Positions 31,599-60,036 of a DNA stretch of 64,000 bases are shown here, piece after piece. Within the stretch, counting starts at the first letter, position 1; each line of letters begins with the position of its first letter. The position numbers and the translations under genes were made by a program. A model generated the notes under the pieces. It did no database searches. It saw only the letters and a list, made by a program, of their open reading frames with translations, and was not told the origin of the DNA. The DNA is taken from the IMG/VR virus record IMGVR_UViG_3300016674_000106. One strand, written 5' to 3'. Source of the DNA: a virus.

Positions 31599-32471
31599 TT
31601 ACACAGCCATCGGTGCTTTAATAGTGTCGTGCGATTGATAATTATCAAGACGAATATCTGACATCTCAAAATCGGTAATAACGCTAACTTCGGGATTGAG
31701 ATATAGTGTCGGGTGCGGCATCGGTTCTCTCGATAGCTGCTCTTTAACTTGCTCGATGTGATTCTCGTAGATATGAGCATCACCGATCGCTAACACAAGC
31801 TCGTCAACTTCTAGGTTGCAGACTTGTGCAATCATATGAGTAAAGAGCGCATAGCTAGCAATATTAAACGGAATTCCAAGGAACATATCGGCGCTACGCT
31901 GGTACATTTGGCAGCTTAATTTTCCGTTATTTACATAAAACTGACTTAAAATATGGCACGGAGGAAGAGCCATTTGATCAAGTTCGCCTGGATTCCATGC
32001 AGAAATGATATGCCTGCGACCGTACGGATCTTCTTTAATACCGTTAATAAGTTCAATAAGTTGATCATGATTTTGTAAAACCACCTTATTTACTCTAACT
32101 AACGGCTTACGCCAGCGACGCCATTGAACTCCGTAAATGCGTCCTAAATCGCCAGGATGGCGCTGTAGTCGTTTATTGACCCAATAGTCGGCTTGTGCAT
32201 TCGCAGTCCAGATAGTTCCTTTTTCGGAGTATCTGTCCCCGTGTAACAGTTCTCGAAGCCGAAATTCATCACCACTACCTTCGATAAACCAGAGCAATTC
32301 GCTAACAACAGACTTCCACGCTAACTTCTTAGTTGTTACTGCCGGAAACCCTTCAGTAAGATCAAACCTCAGTTGAACCCCAAATTTAGAAATAGTACCA
32401 ACACCGGTACGATCGGGTCGCTTGTTGCCAGTTTCTAAAATATCTCTAAGTGCATCTAAATATTGTTTCAT
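31599..32471 (-). CDS. thyA: Thymidylate synthase
   Basis: DRTGVGT, LGRIYGVQWR, MALPPCH catalytic Cys, YQRSADMFLGIPFNIASY. Confidence 0.97.
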   Translation of the reverse strand: MKQYLDALRDILETGNKRPDRTGVGTISKFGVQLRFDLTEGFPAVTTKKLAWKSVVSELLWFIEGSGDEFRLRELLHGDRYSEKGTIWTANAQADYWVNKRLQRHPGDLGRIYGVQWRRWRKPLVRVNKVVLQNHDQLIELINGIKEDPYGRRHIISAWNPGELDQMALPPCHILSQFYVNNGKLSCQMYQRSADMFLGIPFNIASYALFTHMIAQVCNLEVDELVLAIGDAHIYENHIEQVKEQLSREPMPHPTLYLNPEVSVITDFEMSDIRLDNYQSHDTIKAPMAV

Positions 32472-32956
32472 CTTATGTATTCTTTAATTGTATAAGCCGG
32501 CGCTTCTTCTGTAGCACCGAAATGTCTTAGCTCGTGCGATTCGGATGTATTTTCTTTAACGTATTGAAGATCGAAGAATTTATCACATTCATAACTTGCA
32601 TCAATCTCGGTAACATAAAAGACATCAACTAAATGCTTAACGCTATCGTAAAGAGCCTGTCCTCCGATAATAAAGATTTTTTTAGTAGAAAATCTTAGTT
32701 TAAGATCGGTAATAGCTTCTACAGGGTCGCTATACGTAAGGTTAGCGCCCGGATACAAGTGCGAACTAATTACTACGTTTATTCGATTAGTTAACGGCTT
32801 TCCTAGGCTTTTAAAAGTAGTAGAGCCCATGACAACAACGTTGCCGGTGGTCAGCGATTGAAACCATTTCATATCGCCTGCAAGATGCGGCCAGGGCATC
32901 TGCCCTTTGAAACCAATTCCCTGGCCCTGCTCTACTGCGCAGATGCAGTAAATCAT
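32468..32956 (-). CDS. folA: Dihydrofolate reductase
   Basis: GIGFKGQMPW.HL.GDM..F...T.G.VVVMG..TF.SL..PL..R.N.V, IFIIGG, CD.FF. Confidence 0.93.
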   Translation of the reverse strand: MIYCICAVEQGQGIGFKGQMPWPHLAGDMKWFQSLTTGNVVVMGSTTFKSLGKPLTNRINVVISSHLYPGANLTYSDPVEAITDLKLRFSTKKIFIIGGQALYDSVKHLVDVFYVTEIDASYECDKFFDLQYVKENTSESHELRHFGATEEAPAYTIKEYIR

Positions 32957-34096: not shown

Positions 34097-35338
34097 TTAT
34101 TTATAATAGGCAGTCTGACCAAACGGAGAAACAATAGTGTCGTTGCCGTGAATAATAAACAACGTTTCGCAGTAGTTTTCGTCACCCCAACTACCGCACG
34201 GATACCCGTCGGTAAACATGATAAACCGCTTAGGTTCGATACCTTGGTCCTTCATAAAATCAAAGTTAGCATCAAAATCAGTGCCGCCGCCGCCCTTAAC
34301 CTTGTAATGCATGATCTCGTCGGCGTTATCACCGCTAAACTTAGCATAATTATACACCTGGGTGTCAAAGCACCAAAGGTCGAGTTTAAAGTCAACATAC
34401 TCGTCCATGATGCCCTTAACTTCACTCAGGAAGTCCATGGCTTGGCGATCAGAGATGCTACCGGACATGTCGATTGCAACAGACACATCGATAGTTTCTT
34501 CGTTCATCATACCAGGCAACACTGCACCGCAGTGTTGGCTCTTACGGTTCGGCCGACTAAAGCTAAAGTTGCTTTTCAAAATGCTCTGAATGTTCATTCG
34601 CAGCATCTGACGCCAATCCATCTTCGGCTCAGTGAACTCTTGAATGAGCCGTGCAACGCCAGCCGGAGTCTTGCCCGCGCCCGCGCTTTGCATTGCAGAA
34701 ACCATCGCTTCTTTGATTTCGTCGCGAATGACCTTTTTTTCTGCTTCGGTTAGCTTCGGACGACCATTACCCTGCTTACCTTCTTCGTCACCACCGCCGC
34801 CTGAACCCTCGTCGCCATCGTCGTCAAGGTGTTCATCGAGCAGTTGCCCAAGTTGGTCCAGATCGATTTTGATTGCCGTTTTTTCGAGCTCTTCGTAAAT
34901 CTGCTCAAAGCTCCAGTTACGGTATTTGTCGTCTTGAAAGATTTTAATCTTTTTCGGAACTTCGCCGATTTTCTCGTCTTTGAGAATCTGATTCACCGCG
35001 TAGTCGGCTGCAATATTAGCCAGTCGCTTGTCGCGATGACCTGCGCGTCCAATATGGTCAAAAACGTTGTGAAGAACTTCGTGACCGAAGCCAAATTCAA
35101 TTTCTTTTGCGCTCAAGTCGAACACAAAGTTTGCATTGTAATAGAAGTTCCGGCCGTCGGTTGCAAGTGTGTCGCACCAATCGCTTGCATCAATAATTTG
35201 CATACGAGTAGCCATATTGCCAAAGAACGGATGGCGCAGCAGCAGACCGACCCGCGCAGTGGTCAGCTTTTCAACAATTCGATTGTGGTCTGCGGCAGTA
35301 AGTTCTCGAGCAGGGGCGTTGGGTTTTTTGGTTGCCAT
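34097..35338 (-). CDS. Metallopeptidase-like + VWA domain protein (DUF2201-type)
   Basis: HEVLH (HExxH) motif, acidic Gly-rich linker, MIDAS DMSGS, GGGGTDF; start moved to the ATG at 35338, downstream of its promoter. Confidence 0.85.
   Translation of the reverse strand: MATKKPNAPARELTAADHNRIVEKLTTARVGLLLRHPFFGNMATRMQIIDASDWCDTLATDGRNFYYNANFVFDLSAKEIEFGFGHEVLHNVFDHIGRAGHRDKRLANIAADYAVNQILKDEKIGEVPKKIKIFQDDKYRNWSFEQIYEELEKTAIKIDLDQLGQLLDEHLDDDGDEGSGGGGDEEGKQGNGRPKLTEAEKKVIRDEIKEAMVSAMQSAGAGKTPAGVARLIQEFTEPKMDWRQMLRMNIQSILKSNFSFSRPNRKSQHCGAVLPGMMNEETIDVSVAIDMSGSISDRQAMDFLSEVKGIMDEYVDFKLDLWCFDTQVYNYAKFSGDNADEIMHYKVKGGGGTDFDANFDFMKDQGIEPKRFIMFTDGYPCGSWGDENYCETLFIIHGNDTIVSPFGQTAYYK
34098..34105 (-). 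promoter_or_regulatory. Late promoter TATAAATA embedded in the VWA gene's last codons
   Basis: TAT AAA TAA (Tyr-Lys-stop) spells TATAAATA, 13 nt before the next ATG. Confidence 0.45.
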
Positions 35339-35366
35339 GTGTAAATCTCGCTGTGTTAGTGTGTTA

Positions 35367-35395
35367 ATTATACACAAGATGTAGGTAACTGTCAA
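35367..35395 (-). promoter_or_regulatory. Consensus sigma70 promoter (VWA gene)
   Basis: TTGACA (35395-35390), 17 nt, TATAAT (35372-35367). Confidence 0.8.
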
Positions 35396-35409
35396 TGCAC
35401 ATTTAGTCA

Positions 35410-35438
35410 AAAGTAAAGGGCCGGAGGCCCTTTACTTT
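35410..35438 (-). terminator. Hairpin/terminator between MoxR and VWA genes
   Basis: Perfect 13-bp inverted repeat AAAGTAAAGGGCC-gga-GGCCCTTTACTTT. Confidence 0.7.
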
Positions 35439-40507: not shown

Positions 40508-40800
40508 TTAAATTGCCCCTTTTTCCAAACTTCTTCGAGAATTGTTATTGTAACTTGATCAGGATGATACGGAGAATAATCGATTCCGTCGACAATCTCT
40601 GGGTCCCAATCGAAGCTCCAGAGATTGTATTTGTTTCGGATATGCATTCCGAACCCTTGATGCAGAACCGTAAAGCTTATGTTGTTATATGGCATTCGGA
40701 AAAAATAGCTTTGTTCTTCTTCCGACATCTCTAAAATTTCCTTGTGCACTAAATCAACAATTTCGCTGAGCTTTTCGGTTATATGCATCACGTACCCCAT
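40501..40800 (-). CDS. Hypothetical protein
   Basis: 99-aa ORF overlapping the queE end and the next gene. Confidence 0.5.
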   Translation of the reverse strand: MGYVMHITEKLSEIVDLVHKEILEMSEEEQSYFFRMPYNNISFTVLHQGFGMHIRNKYNLWSFDWDPEIVDGIDYSPYHPDQVTITILEEVWKKGQFKC

Positions 40801-41639
40801 GCGTTCCTAAAAAGATCGACTTGAAGCCGCGGACTGTATCTAAGACCGTGTTGCATTGCTAACTTAGCTACGTTAGTGGTATTTAGATTATACACGTTAT
40901 CGGTCCCGCCAACTGGCATTAGATAAACGTGTCCGGTAAAGCCTGCCGATCGATATGCTGCAATTGCACATTCTGCGTCTGCAAAATCTTGATCAGTAGC
41001 GATTACAAACTTTAGATACGTATCGCCGACGGTTTGATAATCGCACACAACCTCGGGTTTGATCGCATGTTCCCATTTTTCGCCCGAACACGGTAGTTTC
41101 GCACTAACGCTAAACGTGATTTCGCCGCCTGCATGCGGATACCTTGCTGCGCGCCAACCTTTGAGATACTCTTTGAACTCGTCTGTTAGCGGTTGTGTGC
41201 CGTTAGTTTCGAACGTAATTTCTTTTAGTGCCTGCATTACAGGATGGTCGAGAAGTTCCGGGTATGCTCGTTGCCAGCCTAGCAGAGGCTCGCCACCGGT
41301 GATAATTAGGTGTTCATCCTTCCATTCTTTATTAGGAAGCAACATACAGATCTTTTCTGCAAGTTCGGTAGTACCAACCATCGGACTGAACTCTTTAAAC
41401 TTCGGGTGCCAAGATGCATACGAATCACAGCCAGTGGTTACAAGAGGAAGTTCCTCGTATGCTCGATACTGTTTCGGATCGATAAATTCTACTTCATTAG
41501 ATCGGCACCCTCGGTCCATACCAAACCCGGCACATGTAAAGTTACAACCGAACGTTCGAAGAAATACGCTCGGTACTCCGACATACTTGCCTTCGCCTTG
41601 GACGCTATAAAACAACTCTGCTACTTTAATTTTACTCAT
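40788..41639 (-). CDS. queE: 7-carboxy-7-deazaguanine synthase (radical SAM)
   Basis: ELFYSVQGEG...GVPSVFLR.FGCN..C, ITGGEPLL, FETNGT, VS.K, LKFV, YLMP, RLQV. Confidence 0.9.
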   Translation of the reverse strand: MSKIKVAELFYSVQGEGKYVGVPSVFLRTFGCNFTCAGFGMDRGCRSNEVEFIDPKQYRAYEELPLVTTGCDSYASWHPKFKEFSPMVGTTELAEKICMLLPNKEWKDEHLIITGGEPLLGWQRAYPELLDHPVMQALKEITFETNGTQPLTDEFKEYLKGWRAARYPHAGGEITFSVSAKLPCSGEKWEHAIKPEVVCDYQTVGDTYLKFVIATDQDFADAECAIAAYRSAGFTGHVYLMPVGGTDNVYNLNTTNVAKLAMQHGLRYSPRLQVDLFRNAWGT

Positions 41640-41664: not shown

Positions 41665-41949
41665 TTATACACGATTGCTGTGAAATAATGTAGACCACGA
41701 CTTCAATTTGTTAACCTTTTTTGCCTTTGCTTGTTCTAACTCGCCCACAGTAATTACATTTTGGTCAATTAGATAGTCTACAATTGCAAGAATGTCGCCG
41801 ATTTCTTCGTTCAGTAGTTCTCTATTTTTAATACCTTCTTTAAGATGTAATTCGTCAATACCAAATCGACGACATTTACTAACTATTTGAATAACTTCGG
41901 CGCATTCTTCTTGTAAAATACCAAGGGCTTCGAGAATTTTATCGTTCAT
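41665..41949 (-). CDS. MazG-like nucleotide pyrophosphohydrolase
   Basis: LQEECAEV...L.EEIGD acidic motif; start MNDKIL at 41949. Confidence 0.75.
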   Translation of the reverse strand: MNDKILEALGILQEECAEVIQIVSKCRRFGIDELHLKEGIKNRELLNEEIGDILAIVDYLIDQNVITVGELEQAKAKKVNKLKSWSTLFHSNRV

Positions 41950-42478
41950 AACGGCAGTGACTTTTTTGTGTTTCCCAAAGCTCAACGGCAGAAACAGTAG
42001 CAATATCTTTGAGCTGAGATTGGGCGTAGTCGCTAAGAAACGCGCAAATGTTCTCTGAAGTGGGAACAAAGTTGACTAATACAAAACTATCTAAATGAAG
42101 CTTTCGAAACTCGCTAACCGCATAGATAGATGTGGTAACAAGTTCTCCTAGGTTGGTAAAGTTGTTAACATTTTCAGGAAGATCTAAAGGGTCAATGCTT
42201 GTAATCAATTCAAAGTTAGGATCATTGATGTCAATCATAAATTTATGATCTAACGTAGTATCGATAAACTGCTTCATGAAGTTTAAATTTTTAAAATCAG
42301 TAACCATGCTCGATTGATCGAGTTTTTCAGATTTTAAAAATACTTTAAGTGTGTAGCTATGCCCGTGTAGGTGTTTACAGGCACACTCGGTACTAATGCT
42401 CAGATGGGTGTGCTTGAGCTCCTGCGCCCAAACACGATGCCCCATTTCCCAATTAAACGCTTTATCAATGATCCACAT
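41939..42478 (-). CDS. queD: 6-carboxytetrahydropterin synthase
   Basis: GHRV...CKHLHGHSY...DFK...LDHKF...PTSENI...VELWET; start at 42478 coupled to the upstream stop. Confidence 0.9.
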   Translation of the reverse strand: MWIIDKAFNWEMGHRVWAQELKHTHLSISTECACKHLHGHSYTLKVFLKSEKLDQSSMVTDFKNLNFMKQFIDTTLDHKFMIDINDPNFELITSIDPLDLPENVNNFTNLGELVTTSIYAVSEFRKLHLDSFVLVNFVPTSENICAFLSDYAQSQLKDIATVSAVELWETQKSHCRYER

Positions 42479-42975
42479 TATTTTGCCCACCAGTCTTCGT
42501 ACGGAAAGTCAACCCAGACGTCATCTTCGTTTTTGTTGATAGTCATTCCTACGAAATCCATATCTACGTTTGCTCGACTAGACTGATTATCTACCACAAT
42601 GGCAAATTTAACGTTTTCATTCCACACATGCTTCCATCGATCTCGATCCGGAAGGCAAGACCCTTGCCAGTCTTCGATGATCCAATTGATAGTTGCTCCG
42701 GAATCGTTAATGTCGTCGACAATTAAGATTTTCTTACCGTCAAATGCATCCTCGCTCATCCATGCATTGGTTTCAGTTCCGCCGCCGTCGCGCAGGCTAA
42801 CTTTTAATGTTTCTAACGGTTTTTGAAAATACTGGCTGATCATTACAGCAGGAACAAGACCGCCTCGAGTAATGCCTACGATATAATCCGGAATCCAGCC
42901 CGATACAGCAATCTGCTGGCACAGGCTATTGATCAAACCTTTAAATTCGGTCTGATTAATAACAAGTTTTTTCAT
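42478..42975 (-). CDS. Type I (Gpt-like) purine phosphoribosyltransferase
   Basis: IVGITRGGLVPA and PRPP loop ILIVDDINDSGAT; ends WVDFPYE. Confidence 0.88.
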   Translation of the reverse strand: MKKLVINQTEFKGLINSLCQQIAVSGWIPDYIVGITRGGLVPAVMISQYFQKPLETLKVSLRDGGGTETNAWMSEDAFDGKKILIVDDINDSGATINWIIEDWQGSCLPDRDRWKHVWNENVKFAIVVDNQSSRANVDMDFVGMTINKNEDDVWVDFPYEDWWAK

Positions 42976-42976
42976 G

Positions 42977-43663
42977 TTAGCCCTTTGCAGTGTTAACGAT
43001 ATTCATAAACTCTGCACGAACTGCTGGATCAGTTTTAAATGCACCGCCGAGTTTGGAAGTAACAGTGGAACTACCGGTATCTTCAACGCCGCGTGCTGCA
43101 ACGCAATAATGTTTAGCATTAATTACAACGGCAATGTTATCGGTTTCGAGGATATATTGCAGTGCGTAATAAATTTGTTCGGTTAGCCGTTCTTGGATCT
43201 GAGGCCGCTTGCTAAAGTATTCGACAATTCGATTGATCTTAGAAAGCCCGAGAACCTTCTCGTTAGGAATATACCCGACAGTAGCGAAGCCGTCAATGAC
43301 CACAAAGTGGTGTTCACAATTTGATTGCACATTAACGTTTCGCTCTACGACCATTTCGTCGTAGTTCATTTTATTTTCAACAGTTGTGCACTTAGGAAAC
43401 GCGTCGTAATCGAGGCCCCAAAAAATTTCATTCACAAACATTTTCGCAACACGCTTTGGAGTTTCGACTAGACTATCGTCTGTTAGATCGAGTCCGAGCA
43501 CCTGCATAATCTGTCGGAAATGATTTTCGATGATATCGATCCGTTCCTTGCGATCACCGTAGCTTACGTCATTATTGACCGGTGTTTCTACACCGCACTT
43601 TACTAAATGTTCGTGGATTTGTTGACCTAGAGCCGGATCGGTTTTAGTTTTGTTGTATGACAT
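42977..43663 (-). CDS. folE: GTP cyclohydrolase I
   Basis: TPKRVAKM, CEHHFV, GLSKINRIV, RPQIQERLT, HYC..ARG; start MSYNK at 43663 after AAGGA SD. Confidence 0.95.
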   Translation of the reverse strand: MSYNKTKTDPALGQQIHEHLVKCGVETPVNNDVSYGDRKERIDIIENHFRQIMQVLGLDLTDDSLVETPKRVAKMFVNEIFWGLDYDAFPKCTTVENKMNYDEMVVERNVNVQSNCEHHFVVIDGFATVGYIPNEKVLGLSKINRIVEYFSKRPQIQERLTEQIYYALQYILETDNIAVVINAKHYCVAARGVEDTGSSTVTSKLGGAFKTDPAVRAEFMNIVNTAKG

Positions 43664-43725
43664 TTGATATCCTTCCTTACGCGGATTAATTTTGTAGATT
43701 GTTGTGTCACCGTTGTGTGACAAGA

Positions 43726-44829
43726 TTATTTATATGCTGCGATTTGCGAGATCAAATTATCTGCGCTAAAAAATTTCGATGTTAGTAACTGTTCAACTGT
43801 AGATAAGTCAACATTGTTATATGATTTAATTATACTGCGAATTTTGTCTACAATCAAATCTTTATGCGATTGATATGCATTGTAGTTAATTGTCCATTCG
43901 CTAGGGTACTTAAATTCTTCTGGATACATCTCAGTATAACTTAGACGGTCGGGCACAAACGGAATAGCACCAGCTAACACCCCCTCGTAAGGAGAAATTC
44001 CTAAAGTTTCTTGCAGGTTGGCACTAAAAACCATTTTTGCCTTGCCTAAGATTTGATGGTATTCGGTCTTAGTTAGCCGAGACTCTTGACATACAACAAA
44101 CTGATATTCCGGAATAGACTTTGCTAGATCTTTAAAAATATCTAGTTGTTTTTCTGGAGCAATACGGTGCGGAAATACGATTAGGTCTTCCTTTGTCGAC
44201 TTGTATCGTCTAATTTCATCTTTAAGATACTCCATCGGCCAGCCGGTTTGAATTACTTTTCCAGTGCGTTCGGCATTGTAATGCTCTGAGGGTCCTTCGT
44301 GTCCGAACAGATTTTTGAAGAACATACTGGTATGAAACTCGGTTGCAAAGTAGTTTTTATCAAGCGCATAAAAGAAACTTTTTTCAGTATGTCTGACCCA
44401 CGGAGCGTCACCGACAATTCTACCTAAGAAATCTTGCGGATCGTAGCTACCTGCATGCCAGAGCCCGTGCAATACCCAGTTCGTTCCTAGCAAATCCTTC
44501 ATATACTTAACTTGTAGGATTGTCGGGTTCCAAGCATCTGTAAACAGAATATGATCGTTCGGTTTGACTAGCCGATTATTAAACTTTTCTAAAAAGTTAA
44601 TAAGCTGCGAGCTTTTCCAATTGTTGGTGTCGGAGAAATTCAAAAATGCACCAGGAGTCGGTGCTGTGTTCAATTGTACACCGCTAATGTCACAGACATT
44701 GAACTTATCGGACAGTGCTTCTTTTAAAAGCAAAGGAATATGCACTTCCCACTGACCGGTGTATCTAGTTTCGATCGGTTCTAGAGACATTACCCAGATT
44801 GTGGGCTTTGAGAAATCCATTTCTATCAT
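43726..44829 (-). CDS. GT-B (GT4-like) glycosyltransferase
   Basis: VFPHR.APEKQ and E-x7-E motif ETLGISPYE, then GAIP.VP....Y.E. Confidence 0.8.
   Translation of the reverse strand: MIEMDFSKPTIWVMSLEPIETRYTGQWEVHIPLLLKEALSDKFNVCDISGVQLNTAPTPGAFLNFSDTNNWKSSQLINFLEKFNNRLVKPNDHILFTDAWNPTILQVKYMKDLLGTNWVLHGLWHAGSYDPQDFLGRIVGDAPWVRHTEKSFFYALDKNYFATEFHTSMFFKNLFGHEGPSEHYNAERTGKVIQTGWPMEYLKDEIRRYKSTKEDLIVFPHRIAPEKQLDIFKDLAKSIPEYQFVVCQESRLTKTEYHQILGKAKMVFSANLQETLGISPYEGVLAGAIPFVPDRLSYTEMYPEEFKYPSEWTINYNAYQSHKDLIVDKIRSIIKSYNNVDLSTVEQLLTSKFFSADNLISQIAAYK
43727..43734 (-). promoter_or_regulatory. Late promoter TATAAATA upstream of folE
   Basis: Formed by the final Tyr-Lys-stop codons of the glycosyltransferase gene. 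Confidence 0.45.
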
Positions 44830-45106: not shown

Positions 45107-45136
45107 ATATTACACGAGTTTGCTATTGTATGTCAA
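45107..45136 (-). promoter_or_regulatory. sigma70-type promoter
   Basis: TTGACA (45136-45131), 18 nt, TAATAT (45112-45107). Confidence 0.55.
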
Positions 45137-45513
45137 CTAATTTTTTTGGTATATTCGATCACACACCCGCATTCTCCGTCCTCGCTCACTTCCAGTGACA
45201 TATTTCTGTTCGGGTATCGCTTAACGACTTCGGCAGCAACGTCGTCTGCTAGCATTTCAACACTCTTGTGGTTGATGTCGATAACATTTGTTTCGAATAA
45301 AGACTCGCAAAAATTCAAAAACTGATGAAATTCAAGTTCACGATCGTCATGAAACACTTCGATCTTTACTTTAAATTTAAACAAATGTCGATGTCGGTTA
45401 GCAAGGTAGCTAACATCTTGTAAGGACGGGTCGGCCGCTGCCTGCGGGTAATAGTGGAAACCGGCCCGTTGAAACGTTACCCAGATCCAGCGAGAGGTAG
45501 TATGCGTATTCAT
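45133..45513 (-). CDS. Second QueD-like T-fold protein
   Basis: F...GFH.YP...LANRHRHLF.FKV...D.E.EF...S.E.LA...VSEDGE.G; HRH in place of the QueD HGH. Confidence 0.65.
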   Translation of the reverse strand: MNTHTTSRWIWVTFQRAGFHYYPQAAADPSLQDVSYLANRHRHLFKFKVKIEVFHDDRELEFHQFLNFCESLFETNVIDINHKSVEMLADDVAAEVVKRYPNRNMSLEVSEDGECGCVIEYTKKIS

Positions 45514-46040
45514 TTAATGATAGTATCCTTTCCGTACTTCTTCCAGTCTGTAAAAACTTTTCGATCCATTAAATCGTGTACATTGTGCACCCAAACTCCA
45601 GGATTAGTCCTATTAAAATCAATGTCATCGATCTTAATACACGCATTGTAGTTTAAATGCTTTATGTAAGGTATTTTAACACTAATTTGTGGAATAAACA
45701 AGTTGCTTTCTAACAAATGAGATTCTTGAAGTCCTTCTACCTCGGAAAGATCTAAGTCCAACGTGCACCAATATTTTTGGTCGATGCACGGTGTAATCAT
45801 TTTTTCCCACATAGACCAAGTGTCGTAGTCATCTGCTCCGTGCGTTTTAAAGCTCTGATTTGCACCGAAATAAATGTGTTCTACATTCCAGTCCTTGGCT
45901 AACTGTAAAATAGTTTCAGCATCGTGAACACCAGATACGAAAAGCGTCTTCATACCATATGCAGGCGTGTGCTCGATTTCGTCTCCTACGAAATACTGAA
46001 CATCTGCGTCAGATGTTCCTGTGTCGTAATCTCGTTTCAT
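45510..46040 (-). CDS. Hypothetical protein inside the deazaguanine island
   Basis: 176 aa, coupled at both ends (ATGA overlaps) to the TGT-like and T-fold genes. Confidence 0.65.
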   Translation of the reverse strand: MKRDYDTGTSDADVQYFVGDEIEHTPAYGMKTLFVSGVHDAETILQLAKDWNVEHIYFGANQSFKTHGADDYDTWSMWEKMITPCIDQKYWCTLDLDLSEVEGLQESHLLESNLFIPQISVKIPYIKHLNYNACIKIDDIDFNRTNPGVWVHNVHDLMDRKVFTDWKKYGKDTIIK

Positions 46041-48709: not shown

Positions 48710-51379
48710 TTAATCAAAACTGAAAAGATTGTTGAACGTGTTGTCTTCGGTTGTAGACATCAGATCCCAGTCAAGGACTCCGATTAGGTTCTCAAGTTTA
48801 TTGTTGATAATTACGGACTCCATTTCGCTGTGGTCGAACGGTAATTCTTGAAACCACTTAGGCAATCGAAGTTCGTCGACGGGGTATGCAACTGACGTAA
48901 ACCCGATAGGGTTTTCTTTTAGCTTGCATACGATTACTTTCATGCCGTCAACAATCGGTTGGCTATACTTGTCCCCGTTCATGCGTCGCAGCGTGTTCCA
49001 ATTAATGCTTGCGCGCACATGTCCTGGCATAGTCGTTTTGCCATTCTTTTCTTCTTTAGCTTGGTACTCAGTAATGTTATTGGCCCGCTTCGGAGAACCT
49101 TTTTCCCAACCCGGCCTGGCCTTGAATAAAGTTCGAAATTCTTTAATCATTTCGAGGACTTCGGTCTCGCCGGCACCGTGTAGGACTTTATTTAGAACAT
49201 CGCTTAAGAAGTTCTGCATATATTCAGGCGTATCGCTGCGCTTTAGATCGAGCCCCATTGCCTTAATCTTTCCGTCTTTACCATTAACATCTTGACGCTT
49301 CCCGTCTTTGTCGTAATAAAGTACAGCATACCGTTTTTTGGTAATAAACAAGCCTTTAGAAGCTACGATTTCTCGCCCTGCTTTGATAACGGATCCGCGA
49401 CTCTTTGGACAATGAAATTTGTCTAACATCATCTGAGGGAAAGTGCTATTCACTTCTTCAGAGATGTTATCGTACAGATGGATTACAGTATCTTTATCCC
49501 ATTGAATAAGCCCTTTACTGATGTCATTCTTTAAGATAGGATACGCACTGAAATATGCAGAGTCAGTGTCACCGTAAATAATACTTTTACCCACATGATC
49601 GTACTCTCCGGTTATAAGTTCATTAACCTTTGCGGCCATATGCTTAGCAACTTGCCGGCCAGTGAGAGTTGTTGATTGTCCGATTCTGTTATCAAAGAAT
49701 CTGCATCCCGCGTTAAGAATTGCACCGTATAGCGAGTTTAGGTTAATCTTTTTAACTAGCTGTCGTTTGTCCCAGTACTCTTCTTCGATTGCATTTCCGG
49801 CTTCGATTGCTGCCTTTAACTTAGCCTGCATTTCTTTACGCTCTGAATACCATCGCTTTAGCAGACCAGGTATAATTCCTTCTTTTTCGTATGTAAAGAT
49901 TGTACCGTTGGCACTAATGGTCCATGGCTGGTTACTCTCGAATAACATTTCATAAATCTGAGCGCCCGACATTACGTCAGTTTGACCATTCTCCCAGTCA
50001 ATGATGATATCGTGAGTGCGATCCTTTGCCATTACAAACTCGTATTCGTTAGAACCGAATTTGCCTTCCCATGCTCCTGCAAAACTTGACCCTTTGGCCA
50101 TTTTTGCTTCGATTTCGGCCTTTGTGTATTCGGGTCTGAGCTGCCCGACAATGGTTTCTGGCCCCATGTTCAACGCGCGAATCGCAGAAGGATACAGAGA
50201 GTTAATGTCCATTGATCCGATCCAGTCGTGCAGCCCTTTCTTTGGATATGCAACATATGCACCCGCGGCCTGCGTATCTCCTTGTTCGCCTTTTCGTTGA
50301 CGACTTGGAACAATTAAACCGTGACTATGAGCTTCGTTAATAATAGCCTGCTCTGTAACGGCAACAGCTCCCATAATAGTCGGAAGAAGAACAGTGTTCT
50401 CGTGGGCAAGTGTGTTTGCAAGATCTAAGAACTTCAGCTTCTTATCTAGTCGATCCAACAGTGCTGTATCTTGCCGGTTGTATTCGATGAACTTTTTAAA
50501 ATCTCGATTGTAAAGCTGATCCAGCGTGCCTTCGTATTGAGTCTTTCTTTCACCGAGCTCGTAAAATGCAATAGCATCTAACGAATAACTATGCCGTTCT
50601 TCGTATGTGTATTTTCGATACAGTTCTAAGCTGTCCATGTGCACACGACCAACAAAGTCGTATGTAATTGCCGTTTTTCCGTACTTTTCGTACTCTCTCT
50701 TTTTCGGAAGCTGATTCCACAGGCAAAACCGCCGAGTATCATCTTTACTTAGAGTTTTTGTAACGCGATTAACAGTATACGGGATATCGAAACCTTCGCT
50801 GTTCCAGCCGCTTAATACATCAGCATCTTCGATAAGAGTTAAAAATGTATCTAACATCTCATACTCTGTTTCGAACAGGATAGTGTTAGGGAACTCTTTA
50901 ATTTCTTCTTGGGCCTGCTCCATTGTGAGCGTTTTTGGCGGAACTGCTAGACACACTAGAGTATCTAGCCATTGCATATGCACCGCAATCGAAGTAATCG
51001 GCATAAACGCATCCTCCGGCGATGCGTATCCGCGCTCTGGGTCAAAGTCAACTTCGATATCGAAAAACGCCACATTTAGTTTAGGCGCTTCTTTTCCAAG
51101 GTAACACTCTTCGAGCGCTCGGAACACCGGATTAATATCGCTTTCGAAGAGTTTTTTGCCAGAATGAATTCGTTGCTCTTTTGCGAACTCTTTCCAGCTT
51201 CGGCAACTAACCTTTGTAAGATTGTCGCCAAAAATGCTTTTATATTTTCCTTTCGGATCCGGATAATAGAACATATACCTTGCAGGTATATCTTGGTATA
51301 CGCGTTTTTGATCGGTGTTTCTTTCTACAACCCGTATAATATCGTCATCTCTTAACCAAATTGCATCTACGTAACTCAT
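48710..51379 (-). CDS. Family B DNA polymerase (gp43-like)
   Basis: Exonuclease FFDIEVD, GWNS..FDIPY, YN..D; polymerase DINSLYPS, K...NSLYG, YGDTDS, KKRY. Confidence 0.97.
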   Translation of the reverse strand: MSYVDAIWLRDDDIIRVVERNTDQKRVYQDIPARYMFYYPDPKGKYKSIFGDNLTKVSCRSWKEFAKEQRIHSGKKLFESDINPVFRALEECYLGKEAPKLNVAFFDIEVDFDPERGYASPEDAFMPITSIAVHMQWLDTLVCLAVPPKTLTMEQAQEEIKEFPNTILFETEYEMLDTFLTLIEDADVLSGWNSEGFDIPYTVNRVTKTLSKDDTRRFCLWNQLPKKREYEKYGKTAITYDFVGRVHMDSLELYRKYTYEERHSYSLDAIAFYELGERKTQYEGTLDQLYNRDFKKFIEYNRQDTALLDRLDKKLKFLDLANTLAHENTVLLPTIMGAVAVTEQAIINEAHSHGLIVPSRQRKGEQGDTQAAGAYVAYPKKGLHDWIGSMDINSLYPSAIRALNMGPETIVGQLRPEYTKAEIEAKMAKGSSFAGAWEGKFGSNEYEFVMAKDRTHDIIIDWENGQTDVMSGAQIYEMLFESNQPWTISANGTIFTYEKEGIIPGLLKRWYSERKEMQAKLKAAIEAGNAIEEEYWDKRQLVKKINLNSLYGAILNAGCRFFDNRIGQSTTLTGRQVAKHMAAKVNELITGEYDHVGKSIIYGDTDSAYFSAYPILKNDISKGLIQWDKDTVIHLYDNISEEVNSTFPQMMLDKFHCPKSRGSVIKAGREIVASKGLFITKKRYAVLYYDKDGKRQDVNGKDGKIKAMGLDLKRSDTPEYMQNFLSDVLNKVLHGAGETEVLEMIKEFRTLFKARPGWEKGSPKRANNITEYQAKEEKNGKTTMPGHVRASINWNTLRRMNGDKYSQPIVDGMKVIVCKLKENPIGFTSVAYPVDELRLPKWFQELPFDHSEMESVIINNKLENLIGVLDWDLMSTTEDNTFNNLFSFD

Positions 51380-53971: not shown

Positions 53972-53979
53972 TATTTATC
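53972..53979 (-). promoter_or_regulatory. Late promoter-like GATAAATA
   Basis: 28 nt upstream of the ATG at 53943. Confidence 0.55.
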
Positions 53980-54514
53980 GGATTGATAAACCTTTTTTAA
54001 CTTCGTTAAAAAGCTCAGTTGAAAATTCGTTAAAATTAGTCAGTGTACAAAATTTATCAAAATTATTCTCTGCTACTGCCTGCCTAATTTCGGTTGATCG
54101 AATTGCCGGACTGCTGAATTCTACAAATTCAAAATCTAAATCATAAAATCCGTGAGCCGACATACAACCGTTATATTTTAACAGTAGTTCTTTAAACCCG
54201 CTAATTCTATCAGTTCCGGCAATAAATGTCGCTCGTTTGAATCCATGTTGATGCAGCCTTGCTGCGGCCTTGAGCACAGTATTAATTGTTCGGTCTGTGT
54301 TAACTCCTGATGCAATTTCAGGGAACATTCTTTTTATTAAATCGACCTTTGTTTCGAATTCAATTGGGTTAGTTTTCTTGTCCCAAGACGGACTTGCAAA
54401 TATTCTAAAATTAGAGCCGTGACTCATTACCTCTTGCATTAGTAAGCGGTGACCGTAATGCGGCGGCTGAAACCTTCCGAAACAAAAGCTAACATGTTTT
54501 GGATCAATAATCAT
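53975..54514 (-). CDS. HxGH (cytidylyl/adenylyl-transferase-like) nucleotidyltransferase
   Basis: FGRFQPPHYGH, FIAGTDR, IRSTEIR; start at 54514 from the ATGA overlap. Confidence 0.8.
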   Translation of the reverse strand: MIIDPKHVSFCFGRFQPPHYGHRLLMQEVMSHGSNFRIFASPSWDKKTNPIEFETKVDLIKRMFPEIASGVNTDRTINTVLKAAARLHQHGFKRATFIAGTDRISGFKELLLKYNGCMSAHGFYDLDFEFVEFSSPAIRSTEIRQAVAENNFDKFCTLTNFNEFSTELFNEVKKGLSIR

Positions 54515-55626
54515 TTTCTCGGAGCCCACTTTTCTTGATTAATAAGTTTAATAAATTGATCAGGAATATCGTATCGAAATTCCACATTAGGATGTGGCTG
54601 GACATAACCTTCAGGATTGACCATTTTAATATCTGTTAATTCGTCCTGATTGATTCTAGACATTACCTTATGTTTTAATGCTGTAATTTTTTCTATCGAG
54701 CGAAGTAGAACCACAAGGTCGTGTTGATGCTTATAGAGCACAGCTCGTCGCCGTTCTGACAAGTTTTCATTTGCCCAACCTTTAAATAGATGAATAATGT
54801 ACTCTTTTCGGTGAACGGCATTTAGAAATGTATACACGATTTCGCCTGGAGTTTTCATAAACGGTTTTGAATTTAAAAACGTATCAATAGCATCTGCGTT
54901 TTTCTTAATATATTCAGTAACCGTCATTGCATCTTTTAAGAGATCTAATTCCGTATCGGTAATGTTGGGCTGTATAATACCCGGAGCGGTTGATGTAACA
55001 GGTCCTTGGACAATAACTTGATTACTGCTCTTTGTATATTCAGGTCTTTTTTCGATAAAAGATCCTATACTATCGTAAAATCCTGTAGCAGAAATCATAG
55101 CTGTAGCGTTTTCAATTCGCTGACCTGTTAGAGATTCCATTTCTACTTCGAACCGAGTGATATTGGGTTGAAATTTAAACACATTTGTTTCTACCTCTTT
55201 TGGAGCCATAGGAGAGAACAAAAAGCTACCTTCAAAAAACCCATTATCGGGACTGACTTCTTCCATTAACGGCCAGAGAGACGACAACGCCTTTGCATAT
55301 GCAATTCTTTCGTCGGAAATTTTGCCGGTGTTTAAAATAAAATCTTGAAGATCTTTCGCTCGTGTAGGAACTACAGGAGTGCCGTCGGCTAACATTCGAG
55401 AACCTCGCTTGTAATAATCCCAGGCATTCTTAGTCATCATGGTAAACTGACCGTGTTGTTTACCCCAAAAGATTACCGGATTTCCGTCCCATTTTATTTC
55501 TAATGTAGACGGATCTCTTGCTATATGCACTAGTCGTTCCACTGCATGAAGCCCGCCAACGGCTCCGTGAGTAAGCAACAAGTCCTCGACATGCTGGTAT
55601 TTTCTACCAACTGAGTTAGTTTGCAT
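54511..55626 (-). CDS. Ligase-like (KxDG) nucleotidyltransferase-fold protein
   Basis: H.EDL...G, IKWDGNP..FWG (motif I), FEG...F, EGYV, IKL. Confidence 0.6.
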   Translation of the reverse strand: MQTNSVGRKYQHVEDLLLTHGAVGGLHAVERLVHIARDPSTLEIKWDGNPVIFWGKQHGQFTMMTKNAWDYYKRGSRMLADGTPVVPTRAKDLQDFILNTGKISDERIAYAKALSSLWPLMEEVSPDNGFFEGSFLFSPMAPKEVETNVFKFQPNITRFEVEMESLTGQRIENATAMISATGFYDSIGSFIEKRPEYTKSSNQVIVQGPVTSTAPGIIQPNITDTELDLLKDAMTVTEYIKKNADAIDTFLNSKPFMKTPGEIVYTFLNAVHRKEYIIHLFKGWANENLSERRRAVLYKHQHDLVVLLRSIEKITALKHKVMSRINQDELTDIKMVNPEGYVQPHPNVEFRYDIPDQFIKLINQEKWAPRK

Positions 55627-57140: not shown

Positions 57141-57788
57141 TTATCCTGATTGAGTATTTATCTCCGTTCTTAGCTTAACTTCTTCGATTAACTTTATTGC
57201 ATTGCCAGCTGATAGAACTAACATCGAAAGTGTTTTATCGTCAATTACATATAGATAATACGATGGGTTCCACCGCCACTTGCCTGCATTTAACCACAGA
57301 TCGACTGCATGATTAGCCTCGCAGGTTTTTGCGTTGTTTTGCATCCAATTCTTAACAGAAAGTCGTTCGTTATCCGATGCAGTAGGTTTGAACGTAACTT
57401 TAAATCTGTACTTTCTTTTAAATAACTGATTTTTAATTACAAACTTTCTACCGTGATTGACTAGCGTTTTCAGCTCTTCGGCTGTACCTGGTCCCCAAAA
57501 TTGTAAACATCTAGATTTAAATACATCAACAAACTTGTCTTTTAACGCAATATCTTTAAAGAAGATTGCTAATCTAGTATGTTCTCCTCGGGTCGCATAC
57601 TCGGTACTGTCGAAAGATTCTAAAAGTTTTGCTACCGCCTTGACATCTTGTAAGTCGATTTTTGAATGCCAGGACGGGTTCTTTTGCACCATTTTAAGCC
57701 AAGAGGCTCGTTCAACTGATACTACTAGTTTGAACGGCCACTTGCCATAAAATAGCTTACTGGTTGTCAGTGTTGCTATTTGCGTCAT
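57141..57788 (-). CDS. Hypothetical protein
   Basis: 215-aa ORF overlapping the clpA 3' end. Confidence 0.55.
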   Translation of the reverse strand: MTQIATLTTSKLFYGKWPFKLVVSVERASWLKMVQKNPSWHSKIDLQDVKAVAKLLESFDSTEYATRGEHTRLAIFFKDIALKDKFVDVFKSRCLQFWGPGTAEELKTLVNHGRKFVIKNQLFKRKYRFKVTFKPTASDNERLSVKNWMQNNAKTCEANHAVDLWLNAGKWRWNPSYYLYVIDDKTLSMLVLSAGNAIKLIEEVKLRTEINTQSG

Positions 57789-60036
57789 TCGTCTCTAATT
57801 CCTGAACTGGCATTACTTCAATAAAGTTAAGAACCAGTTCGTTATTCTTAACCGATGCTTCTACTACTCCGCCGTTAACAAGCTTACCAAACAGCAATTC
57901 CTTACTAAGCGGCTTCTTGATGTATTCGTCGATTGTTCGCTTCAACGGACGAGCGCCCATCTTTGCGTCAAATCCCTTGTTGATCAAAAACTCCACAGCA
58001 TCGGCAGTAAGCTTAACATGCACATTCCGATCCTTGACAAGGACATTGAGGTCGTCGATAAATTTCTTCACAACCTTAATCATAGTGGTGTGATCAAGCT
58101 TAGAGAACTGAATGATGCCATCGAGACGATTGCGAAACTCAGGAGTAAAGAATCGTTTGATTGCATCACTAGTATCAGTGCTTCGTTCAAGAGTCCCGAA
58201 GCCGACTAGATTCTTCTCCGCATCGGCTGCACCAATGTTAGAAGTTAGAATTACGATTGCGTTACGCCCGTCTGCAACCTTGCCGTTGCTACCAGTAACT
58301 GCGCCGTTATCCATAAGTTGGAGCAGAACCGTTAACACGTCTGGGTGAGCTTTTTCGACTTCGTCGAACAGCAGAATGCAGTTAGGAGTTTCTTGGAGCT
58401 TGGTAATCAGCTGGCCGGCGTTATCGTCGAACCCGACGTAACCCGGAGGGCTACCGATAAACTTAGACACAGAATGCTTCTCTTGGTATTCACTCATGTC
58501 AAATCGAACCAGCGGAGTGCCCATATTTGCAGACAATTGCTTTGCGGCCTCAGTTTTACCAACTCCGGTAGGACCAGTAAACAAGAAGCTACCAATGGGT
58601 TTGTTGAGCTCTTTGAGGCCTGCTTGTGCAATAAAGATTTTATCCAGCAATGCAGTGATCGCGTTATCTTGTCCAAACACCTTTGCCTTCATGTTCTTGT
58701 CAAGATCACGCAGATTCTTGTTTTCCTTTGCAGCAATTTGATCATGCGGAATGTTAGTAATACGACTAACTTCGAACACAATCTGATCGTGATCAACAAC
58801 GCCGTTTTCTTCATCGCGTAGTTTGAATCGCGCGCACGCACAATCGATGAGATCCAGAGCCTTATCAGGCAACTTCTTATCGCTCATGTACTTAACAGAA
58901 TATTTCACTGCATCAGCAATTGCCTGGTTAGTAATCTTAACCTTGTGGTGCTTTTCGTAATACTTGCGAAGGCCCTTGATGATTTTGATAGTAACTGCTT
59001 CAGTAGGTTCGTTCACTGTTACCCGTTGGAATCGACGCATAAGTGCACGATCCTTTTCGAAGTGTTTGCGATACTCTTCCCAGGTTGTAGAGGCAATGAC
59101 CTTAATAGCACTCTTGGCCAACGCGGGCTTCAGCATGTTGCTCATGTCGTTAGCATTGCCACTTGCTGCGCCTGCACCGCTCATCATATGAGCTTCGTCA
59201 ATGAACAGAATGCAGTTTTGCTTCTTTTCGAGTGCAGCAAGAACTTGCTTAAGGCGCTCTTCAAAATCGCCTCGATACTTAGAACCAGCAAGCATGGCGC
59301 CGATATCAAGACTAAACACCTCGTGATTCTTAATAAAGGTTGGCACTTTACCTTCGTGAATCTTCCGAGCAACACCTTCGGCAATTGCGGTCTTACCAAC
59401 GCCAGGGTCGCCAACAAGCATCACGTTGCTCTTATGTCGCCGCGCAAGAACCAGCGTAAGTTCTTCGATCTCATTGTCTCGGCCGATTACAGGGTCAATC
59501 TGATTCGACGCCGCTTTAGCACTCAGATTAGTGCAATACAGGGAAAGTACCTTATCTTGTTTGGTCGAATCAACAGGTGCTTCGGTGGTGTCGTCGTTAT
59601 TTTGGTTGTCTTTAGTCATGTATTCAATAAATGCATCTCTATCAATTTTTGCCTTTTGCATGAAATAGTTTGCATAACTCTCTTTTTCAGAGAAAAGGCT
59701 AACAAAGCAGTCAACAGGTTCGATTGTTTGTCGACCAGTGAACAGAACCTGCGTAAAAGCACGATTCAGCATTCGCTCAACTGTGTTTGTTTTTTTAGGC
59801 GATTCTCCGGCTTGGAGGGTTGCAATGCCGGCATACTCGTTGTCGATAAAATTGACAAGATCGTTGCGAAGTTGGCTAACATCGGCACCAAATTCAGCTA
59901 AGAATTCACAAAATTCTTTGTCAAGAACCATACCATACAGGAAATGTTCAAGCGTAAGATACTCGTGATTTCGATTGATTGCTGCGGTCAGCGCAGTATC
60001 AAACATAGTTGCCAGTTGCTTATTTGGACTCAACAT
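57757..60036 (-). CDS. clpA: ClpA-type ATP-dependent chaperone
   Basis: Clp N-domain (HEYLTLEH.L); D1 [27 protein letters not shown]; D2 [32 protein letters not shown]; LVGF loop. Confidence 0.93.

Follow-up and report, generated by a model that had tools for sequence, protein, structure and literature searches.

The window analysed here, a 64,000-nt stretch of DNA from the IMG/VR virus record IMGVR_UViG_3300016674_000106, carries a gene for a Gpt-like phosphoribosyltransferase (PRTase) in the midst of genes for 7-deazaguanine synthesis, together with a gene for a small MazG-type protein. The whole set forms a cluster for modifying DNA with 7-deazaguanine, of the phiST type (DpdA3/DpdL, without QueC), in a jumbo phage related to PA5oct. 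The role we favour for the PRTase, at a probability of roughly one half, is the recycling of guanine: the base presumably released when a deazaguanine is exchanged into DNA would be converted by the PRTase to GMP and returned, as GTP, to FolE.

Family searches and reading of the DNA define the region from 40.8 to 51.4 kb as a single co-directional block on the minus strand (Table 1). A sequence-only reading of the window had placed the Gpt-like PRTase gene between folE and queD and a MazG-like gene between queD and queE, all tightly packed or overlapping, and this arrangement is borne out. FolE and the PRTase are separated by 1 nt, the PRTase and QueD overlap by 1 nt, QueD and the MazG-type gene overlap by 11 nt, and 25 nt, containing an AAGG Shine–Dalgarno-like site, lie between the MazG stop codon and the ATG of QueE. 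Two starts were corrected from the DNA. That of QueD was moved to the ATG at 42478, where the sequence TAATG overlaps the PRTase stop codon, and that of the MazG-type protein to the ATG at 41949, giving 94 residues in place of 134, a length that agrees with the 89–97 residues of most of its 854 homologues. A scan of 40–52 kb for promoter and terminator consensus sequences did not depart from chance, with 20 matches where 24.1 were expected and 11 where 10.3 were. QueC is absent from the window, as judged by tblastn with the E. coli protein (best E 0.14), and a DNA search of the phage collection for near-identical clusters returned no matches. The record nearest to the window is a fragment of 14.6 kb, which gave no match to TGT (tRNA-guanine transglycosylase).

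Fold and active site of the PRTase

No curated NCBIfam equivalog recognizes the PRTase above threshold, the best match being the xanthine PRTase (42 bits against a cut-off of 138), and the best sequence match of the protein in the PDB is entry 4z1o. The AlphaFold2 model (predicted local distance difference test score, pLDDT, 90.4) is consistent with a PRTase core fold bearing a hood, with purine PRTases as nearest neighbours: the P. horikoshii purine PRTase, the S. solfataricus HGXPRT and the XGPRTs of Yersinia, E. coli and H. pylori, at TM-scores of 0.65–0.79. The 50 best Foldseek matches are dominated by 1vdm, the S. solfataricus HGXPRT and XGPRT/HGPRT chains (E 7e-11 to 1e-7), and also include the S. 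solfataricus APRT, 5vog and two PyrR chains.

The motif binding phosphoribosyl pyrophosphate (PRPP) reads ILIVDDINDSGAT, an acidic pair followed by D-(S/T)-G-x-T. Residues R37-G38-G39, D87-D88, D91, G93, T95, N130 and W154 are invariant in the subfamily, across 34 phage and cellular sequences. D91 aligns with the aspartate of the E. coli Gpt motif VDTGGT (Gpt D92, human HGPRT D137), which we take to be the residue contacting purine N7, the atom missing in 7-deaza bases. The phage clade carries an insertion of approximately 20 residues after the PRPP helix. These features, read from the sequence and the model, point to a 6-oxopurine phosphoribosyltransferase of canonical type, with a correspondingly predicted activity and substrate.

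Distribution of the PRTase

The window PRTase was compared by tblastn with 50,697 phage records, and one representative of each group of matches was checked for que genes. The 21 matching records fall into four groups, PA5oct-like, phiST-like, immuto-like and BUCT-ZZ01, and the checked representative of every group bears que genes. The association of this PRTase with que genes goes beyond chance; the QueE type of the window is found in only 198 of the 50,697 records. In PA5oct-like phages the PRTase adjoins QueE, in Flavobacterium phage immuto_2-6A it adjoins FolE, and in Synechococcus phage BUCT-ZZ01 the order is QueE, PRTase, a gene of unknown function, QueD and FolE. In phiST (L001:8378-13004; the prefix L numbers the loci compared) the PRTase gene is flanked by RNase H and by a gene with a weak match to deoxynucleoside monophosphate (dNMP) kinase (DNMK)/P-loop proteins, with ribonucleotide reductase two genes away. 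The PRTase genes of the cultured phages are EST35_0321 in PA5oct, CGPG_00045 in phiST and gp211 in immuto_2-6A.

More than 7,000 homologues of the PRTase are present in metagenomic data; among the matches listed, identities range from 56 to 67% and lengths from 165 to 197 residues, and the contigs that were read are phage contigs of 220–355 kb. Their common gene order begins with the polymerase, a clamp-like gene, the tRNA-guanine transglycosylase (TGT)-like gene, a gene of unknown function, DpdL, variable sugar genes and a glycosyltransferase, and continues with FolE (in some loci only), QueD, PRTase, QueE, RNase H and a MoxR-type ATPase. The synteny is the same in Pseudomonas phage PA5oct. 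Every related locus long enough to take in the region upstream of the PRTase contains the TGT-like gene; DpdL is found in nearly all of these, and QueE in every related locus extending far enough.

The nearest cellular relatives, at 30–40% identity, belong to Sphingomonadales, Ca. Actinomarina, Flavobacteriaceae and SAR324. None of 80 loci around cellular relatives has FolE, QueD or QueE within 8 kb, and in three sphingomonad genomes the subfamily gene is the sole 6-oxopurine-PRTase-like gene detected, with no canonical hpt or gpt above cut-off. As the cellular relatives have none of these three genes nearby and are, in the three sphingomonads, the only gene of their kind, the subfamily looks, from its sequences and their surroundings, like an ordinary purine-salvage enzyme recruited by phages. 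A version of approximately 140 residues, with Asn at the position of Gpt Lys115, is kept across Sphingomonadales (L027-L106, for example L039, L070 and L029). A scan of bacterial genomes for the PRTase recovered sphingomonad, marine and metagenome-assembled relatives and no Streptomyces tub/toy cluster. In the PRTase tree the four phage groups are not united, with long branches and weak support, which suggests that each of them may have captured the gene independently.

The TGT-like protein and DpdL

The 548-residue protein encoded close to the polymerase is a candidate DNA transglycosylase, predicted from its modelled structure to have the TGT fold. For this protein 884 relatives were collected, of which 76 were aligned. 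Pfam, PHROG and NCBIfam gave no match for it, or for the 176- and 126-residue proteins encoded beside it. A PDB profile search found nothing with a five-sequence profile and reached TGT only at E ~1 with the 76-sequence profile, and a member-by-member Pfam scan of the 76 homologues matched TGT once (E 0.0045). As these sequence searches are insufficient, it is the fold search that settles the assignment: with the AlphaFold2 model (pLDDT 89.5) as the query, the top 50 Foldseek matches in the PDB are all TGT or ArcTGT (E ~2e-6). Residues D104-S105-G107 (DSGG), P151, H261 and D294 are invariant in the 76 homologues, and D104-S105-G107 and D294 presumably map onto the TGT catalytic residues. In hhalign comparisons the profile of the protein matched phiST DpdA3 with a probability of 73% (E 3e-5, 84 columns) and a 416-residue protein of the BUCT-ZZ01 cluster with a probability of 94% (E 9e-8).

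The 126-residue T-fold protein contains the sequence LANRHRHLF, which fits the DpdL signature LxxxHRHxF (Cui 2023, PMC10516641), as opposed to the CxxxHGH of QueD. By BLASTP it matches phiST DpdL (3.6e-8) and BUCT-ZZ01 ZZ33 (8e-25). An Atlas search with the 176-residue protein returned no match.

The MazG-type protein

The MazG-type protein reaches 19.9 bits against Pfam PF03819, for which the cut-off is 22, and several of its homologues have a precomputed match to the same family. Paired acidic motifs of the MazG type, QEECAEV (E14, E15 and E18) and E49..D52, are invariant in 28 homologues. In a PDB profile search the best relevant match was E. coli MazG (E 0.4) and none of the solved pyrophosphatases was significant; matches to designed TIM barrels and CARD domains were dismissed as spurious. 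Comparisons by hhalign with BUCT-ZZ01 ZZ38, phiST gp68 and immuto gp208 were likewise not significant. Pfam classes phiST gp68 as MazG and immuto gp208 as PRA-PH, and gives no match for ZZ38. The phiST MazG-type gene adjoins DpdL and is different from that of the window, and the immuto PRA-PH pyrophosphatase gene lies between FolE and DpdA. The MazG family recurs in many phages without a known deazaguanine system, being frequent among those of Klebsiella, Caulobacter and Rhodobacter, and is therefore not specific to deazaguanine clusters.

The PRTase and this MazG-type gene occur together in the window and in L005, L011 and L012. The PRTase occurs without it in L006-L010, L013-L018 and the PA5oct cluster; in L006-L009 a gene of the HIT family takes its place, and the sole MazG of PA5oct is approximately 40 kb distant. 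Conversely, L107-L110 have the MazG gene between QueD and QueE and no PRTase within 6 kb. This independent distribution among relatives rules out an obligate pair. The HIT-family gene (L006:8498-8908, and also in L007-L009) comes immediately after the PRTase, at the place taken in the window by QueD and MazG. A further nucleotide-handling gene, cytidylyltransferase-like, stands ahead of QueD and the PRTase at L010:7110-7556.

Proposed guanine recycling and its alternatives

In the scheme that we prefer, FolE, QueD and QueE would convert GTP to 7-carboxy-7-deazaguanine (CDG), from which the DpdL-like protein probably strips the carboxyl group. The TGT-fold enzyme would then exchange the deazaguanine base into replicated DNA, freeing guanine, which the PRTase would join to PRPP to form GMP; host or phage kinases would raise GMP to GTP, the substrate of FolE. 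Such recycling would halve the guanine cost of modification, clear a poorly soluble product and pull the exchange forward. The MazG-type protein would be an accessory nucleoside triphosphate (NTP) pyrophosphohydrolase trimming the nucleotide pool, with dGTP, stray deaza-NTPs and (p)ppGpp as candidate substrates. The sequence-only reading had named the recycling of exchange-released guanine as its alternative, and it is this alternative that we rate at about an even chance.

Recycling would account for the confinement of this PRTase type, within the phage collection, to que-bearing groups, because bulk free guanine arises only by base exchange. It would also explain why the PRTase gene abuts folE and why a transglycosylase is always present, as well as the separate inheritance of PRTase and MazG and the lack of a phage PRTase in CP220 and ACP17. 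Published work has so far explained phage 7-deazaguanine DNA by base exchange only (PMC10516641).

Several observations weigh against recycling. The column of Gpt Lys115, which we take to be the lysine binding purine O6, is occupied by an invariant asparagine (N130) throughout the subfamily, cellular members included, in a stretch where the alignment is of low identity. The canonical active site may be compatible with CDG as well, by analogy with TubE, a purine-type PRTase that is CDG-specific. The immuto cluster contains a P-loop kinase and the PRA-PH-type pyrophosphatase, and the phiST PRTase lies near the dNMP-kinase-like gene and ribonucleotide reductase; such neighbours suit a nucleotide route no less well. 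Of the four phage groups with the PRTase, three have DpdL and lack QueC (PF06508 was not found in the PA5oct, phiST and BUCT-ZZ01 genomes), which is the logic of tubercidin synthesis. Recycling also gives the MazG-type enzyme no clear job. Finally, DpdL and DpdA3 expressed together in E. coli yielded no 2'-deoxy-7-deazaguanosine (dDG), and the authors suggest that further enzymes may be needed (PMC10516641).

Most of these observations speak for a pre-replicative route resembling tubercidin synthesis, which we consider possible though on balance doubtful. In that route the PRTase would join CDG, or 7-deazaguanine, to PRPP, and DpdL would decarboxylate the resulting ribotide to 7-deaza-GMP. Kinases and ribonucleotide reductase would lead on to 7-deaza-dGTP, the MazG-type enzyme would lower dGTP, and the family B polymerase would write the analogue genome-wide, leaving the TGT-like enzyme only to polish residual G. 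TubE provides a precedent: it is a purine-type PRTase specific for CDG, its FolE/QueD/QueE cluster lacks QueC, and the carboxyl group is removed from the nucleotide. Polymerases use 7-deaza-dGTP well, and for a TGT-type enzyme to exchange all of the ~10^5 G of a genome would be kinetically demanding. The clusters of the window, phiST and immuto_2-6A each include a pyrophosphatase of the MazG clan, and in phiST and immuto_2-6A there are nucleotide kinases within the set or next to it. The PRTase recurs in two fully substituted phages, phiST, with 302,000 dDG per 10^6 nt, and immuto_2-6A, with 345,000 of the modified nucleoside fdPreQ1 per 10^6 nt, in both of which mass spectrometry showed the loss of all dG (PMC10516641). 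An ADG nucleoside is recorded from CP220-infected cells, as cited in PMC10516641.

This pre-replicative route was the one advanced by the sequence-only reading. Its gene identities and the link to the deazaguanine pathway stand; the conversion of the base to a nucleotide, the depletion of dGTP and the incorporation by the polymerase are disfavoured on five points. The TGT-like gene is kept in every PRTase-bearing cluster examined; the PRTase is canonical, retaining the aspartate taken to contact N7 and having housekeeping-type cellular relatives; PRTase and MazG are inherited separately; other phages widely carry the MazG family; and CP220, in which all G is replaced (Cui 2023, PMC10516641), lacks a PF00156 gene, ACP17 likewise having no PRTase. 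A ribonucleotide stage would, in addition, load RNA with the analogue.

It is unlikely that the two genes form a generic module for GTP supply, in which the PRTase would salvage purines from any source and the MazG-type enzyme would remove (p)ppGpp or other inhibitory nucleotides, so that GTP stays high for FolE and salvage escapes host stringent control, with no special tie to exchanged guanine. In its favour, FolE uses GTP and has the PRTase gene as its immediate neighbour. The nucleotide (p)ppGpp inhibits host Gpt, Hpt and Gmk and can be hydrolysed by E. coli MazG, the PRTase-like structural neighbour 5vog was deposited with ppGpp bound, and the MazG family is broad in phages. Against this, phages without que genes should then carry the PRTase type too, and all 21 matches lie in four groups whose checked representatives bear que genes; moreover, cyanophage MazG is not known to hydrolyse ppGpp.

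A very improbable alternative is that all or some of the cluster serves to produce a free deazapurine nucleoside or nucleotide instead of a DNA base, for example an antimetabolite like tubercidin or a derivative to which the neighbouring glycosyltransferase has added a sugar: a PRTase with FolE, QueD and QueE and without QueC is the tubercidin core, and a glycosyltransferase is present here and sugar-nucleotide enzymes in relatives, but the TGT-fold enzyme beside the polymerase and the restriction resistance of PA5oct DNA point to DNA, and no GMP-reductase, PurA/PurB, UbiD or exporter gene was among the family-search results for the block.

Under the two leading readings the PRTase would either recycle guanine, as the missing economy that renders complete substitution affordable, or open a nucleotide route. 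In both cases the answer alters how the pathway is to be rebuilt in other hosts and how fully substituted phages are predicted. The DpdL/DpdA3 pair has not been reconstituted, and the PRTase recurs in four que-bearing groups, of which two are fully substituted by experiment. The nucleotide route, if true, would overturn the published conclusion of post-replicative insertion in all such phages. Cultured PRTase-bearing phages exist in PA5oct, phiST, immuto_2-6A and BUCT-ZZ01.

Gene block and wider window

Table 1. Genes of the minus-strand block, with the evidence for each assignment.
Feature	Coordinates	Strand	Evidence
Family B DNA polymerase, head of the co-directional block	48710..51379	-	phrog_262 7.7e-202
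TGT-fold, DpdA3-like DNA transglycosylase candidate, 548 aa	46037..47683	-	AlphaFold2 model and Foldseek
Conserved 176-aa protein between the TGT-like gene and DpdL	45510..46040	-	45-52% identity in relatives
DpdL-like T-fold protein, 126 aa (proposed CDG decarboxylase)	45133..45513	-	LxxxHRHxF motif; BLASTP
Glycosyltransferase-like protein adjoining FolE	43726..44829	-	Weak Pfam Glycos_transf_1; kept in relatives, 44-54% identity
FolE (GTP cyclohydrolase I; acts first, on GTP)	42977..43723	-	Pfam PF01227 GTP_cyclohydroI 1.2e-63; NCBIfam FolE 3.1e-96
Gpt-like 6-oxopurine-type PRTase (predicted), 165 aa	42478..42975	-	Pfam PF00156 Pribosyltran 1e-16
QueD (6-carboxy-tetrahydropterin, CPH4, synthase), 179 aa from ATG 42478	41939..42478	-	Pfam PTPS 1.2e-25; phrog_2389 2.1e-33
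MazG-type small all-alpha NTP pyrophosphohydrolase (predicted), 94 aa	41665..41949	-	phrog_4856 'NTP pyrophosphohydrolase' 1.8e-23
QueE (CDG synthase, radical S-adenosylmethionine enzyme)	40788..41639	-	phrog_2076 2e-50; NCBIfam QueE models match weakly

The glycosyltransferase-like gene is a constant component of the cluster, with counterparts of the window gene at L005:5321-6133, L006:3567-5317 and L107:1-1961. In relatives it is accompanied by variable genes for a UDP-glucose dehydrogenase, oxidoreductases of the GFO/IDH/MocA and ADH types, an epimerase and a DegT-type aminotransferase. The presence of such sugar-nucleotide enzymes beside the glycosyltransferase hints at a sugar-bearing end product. 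QueE is apparently split in one relative (L107:6266-7741), where its first 15 codons, 93% identical to those of the window, are followed by an Endonuclease_7 gene (6367-6918) and the remainder of QueE resumes at 6896; this interruption resembles an intron or the insertion of a homing endonuclease.

Elsewhere in the window, a single open reading frame of 4,210 residues occupies 12439-25071 on the plus strand. Thymidylate synthase and dihydrofolate reductase lie side by side (31599-32956 and 34097-35410), with an HNH endonuclease gene nearby. A cytidylyltransferase-like gene, encoding a HIGH-motif nucleotidyltransferase, is found at 53975-54529 (Pfam CTP_transf_like 3.2e-8), and a ClpA-like ATP-dependent protease/ATPase of 759 residues at 57757-60036 (phrog_4871, 2e-250).

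Comparison with known systems

The cluster as a whole represents a variant on the DpdA3/DpdL systems already known, and its embedded PRTase with a MazG-type enzyme was found in no paper: none of those searched mentions a phosphoribosyltransferase together with deazaguanine, phage and DpdA, and PMC10516641 mentions no phosphoribosyltransferase. For PA5oct, Iyer et al. noted a system of deazaguanine synthesis and incorporation (PMC7824862), and its DNA is reported to resist 5 of the 10 enzymes listed, the authors inferring modified G in a GA/GG context (PMC12191111).

Among systems of base replacement, the window resembles S-2L and T4 in having a predicted all-alpha MazG-type NTP pyrophosphohydrolase beside enzymes for a non-canonical base, close to the polymerase. 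The S-2L PurZ/MazZ/DatZ and T4 gp56/gp42 systems replace a base before replication at the dNMP level, with a dNTP pyrophosphatase, and neither is known to have a post-replicative exchange enzyme. The window differs from them in that a ribonucleotide would be the product of its sole nucleotide-forming enzyme, in that it has a transglycosylase, and in that MazG is dispensable among relatives.

With the 6-oxopurine PRTases S. solfataricus HGXPRT (4z1o), P. horikoshii 1vdm and E. coli Gpt (1a95/1nul), the window PRTase shares the fold, the DDxxD(S/T)GxT motif, the RGG loop, a stacking Trp and a C-terminal FPWE-type motif. It is unlike them in its identity of only 17–23%, the Asn at Gpt Lys115, the insertion of approximately 20 residues and the position of its gene within a deazaguanine operon.

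TubE and ToyH, of tubercidin and toyocamycin synthesis, are likewise small purine-type PRTases clustered with FolE, QueD and QueE, and the tubercidin cluster shares with the window both the lack of QueC and the need for a decarboxylation. For ToyH, PMC6112128 cites accession ACF06639.1. TubE uses CDG specifically, rejects 7-deazaguanine and acts in a QueC-less cluster ahead of a decarboxylation at the nucleotide level (PMC6112128); in the alignment given in the supplement, its authors set TubE against PDB entry 4z1o, written there as 4Z10 (PMC6112128). The likeness of TubE to the window PRTase is drawn through 4z1o, the best PDB sequence match of the latter. The window differs in having a T-fold DpdL and a TGT-like enzyme, and no UbiD decarboxylase, GMP reductase or Nudix gene.

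A close counterpart is the DpdA3/DpdL system of phiST, which has in common with the window a polymerase-proximal block with a TGT-like gene, a gene of unknown function, DpdL, a MazG-type gene, FolE, QueE and QueD, no QueC, and a related PRTase at 30% identity. The two differ in the place of the PRTase, which lies within the operon in the window and approximately 20 genes from the que block in phiST; in the TGT-like protein, of 548 residues in the window and 259 in phiST; in the MazG-type proteins, of 94 and 195 residues, respectively, which show no BLAST likeness; and in the glycosyltransferase inserted in the window cluster.

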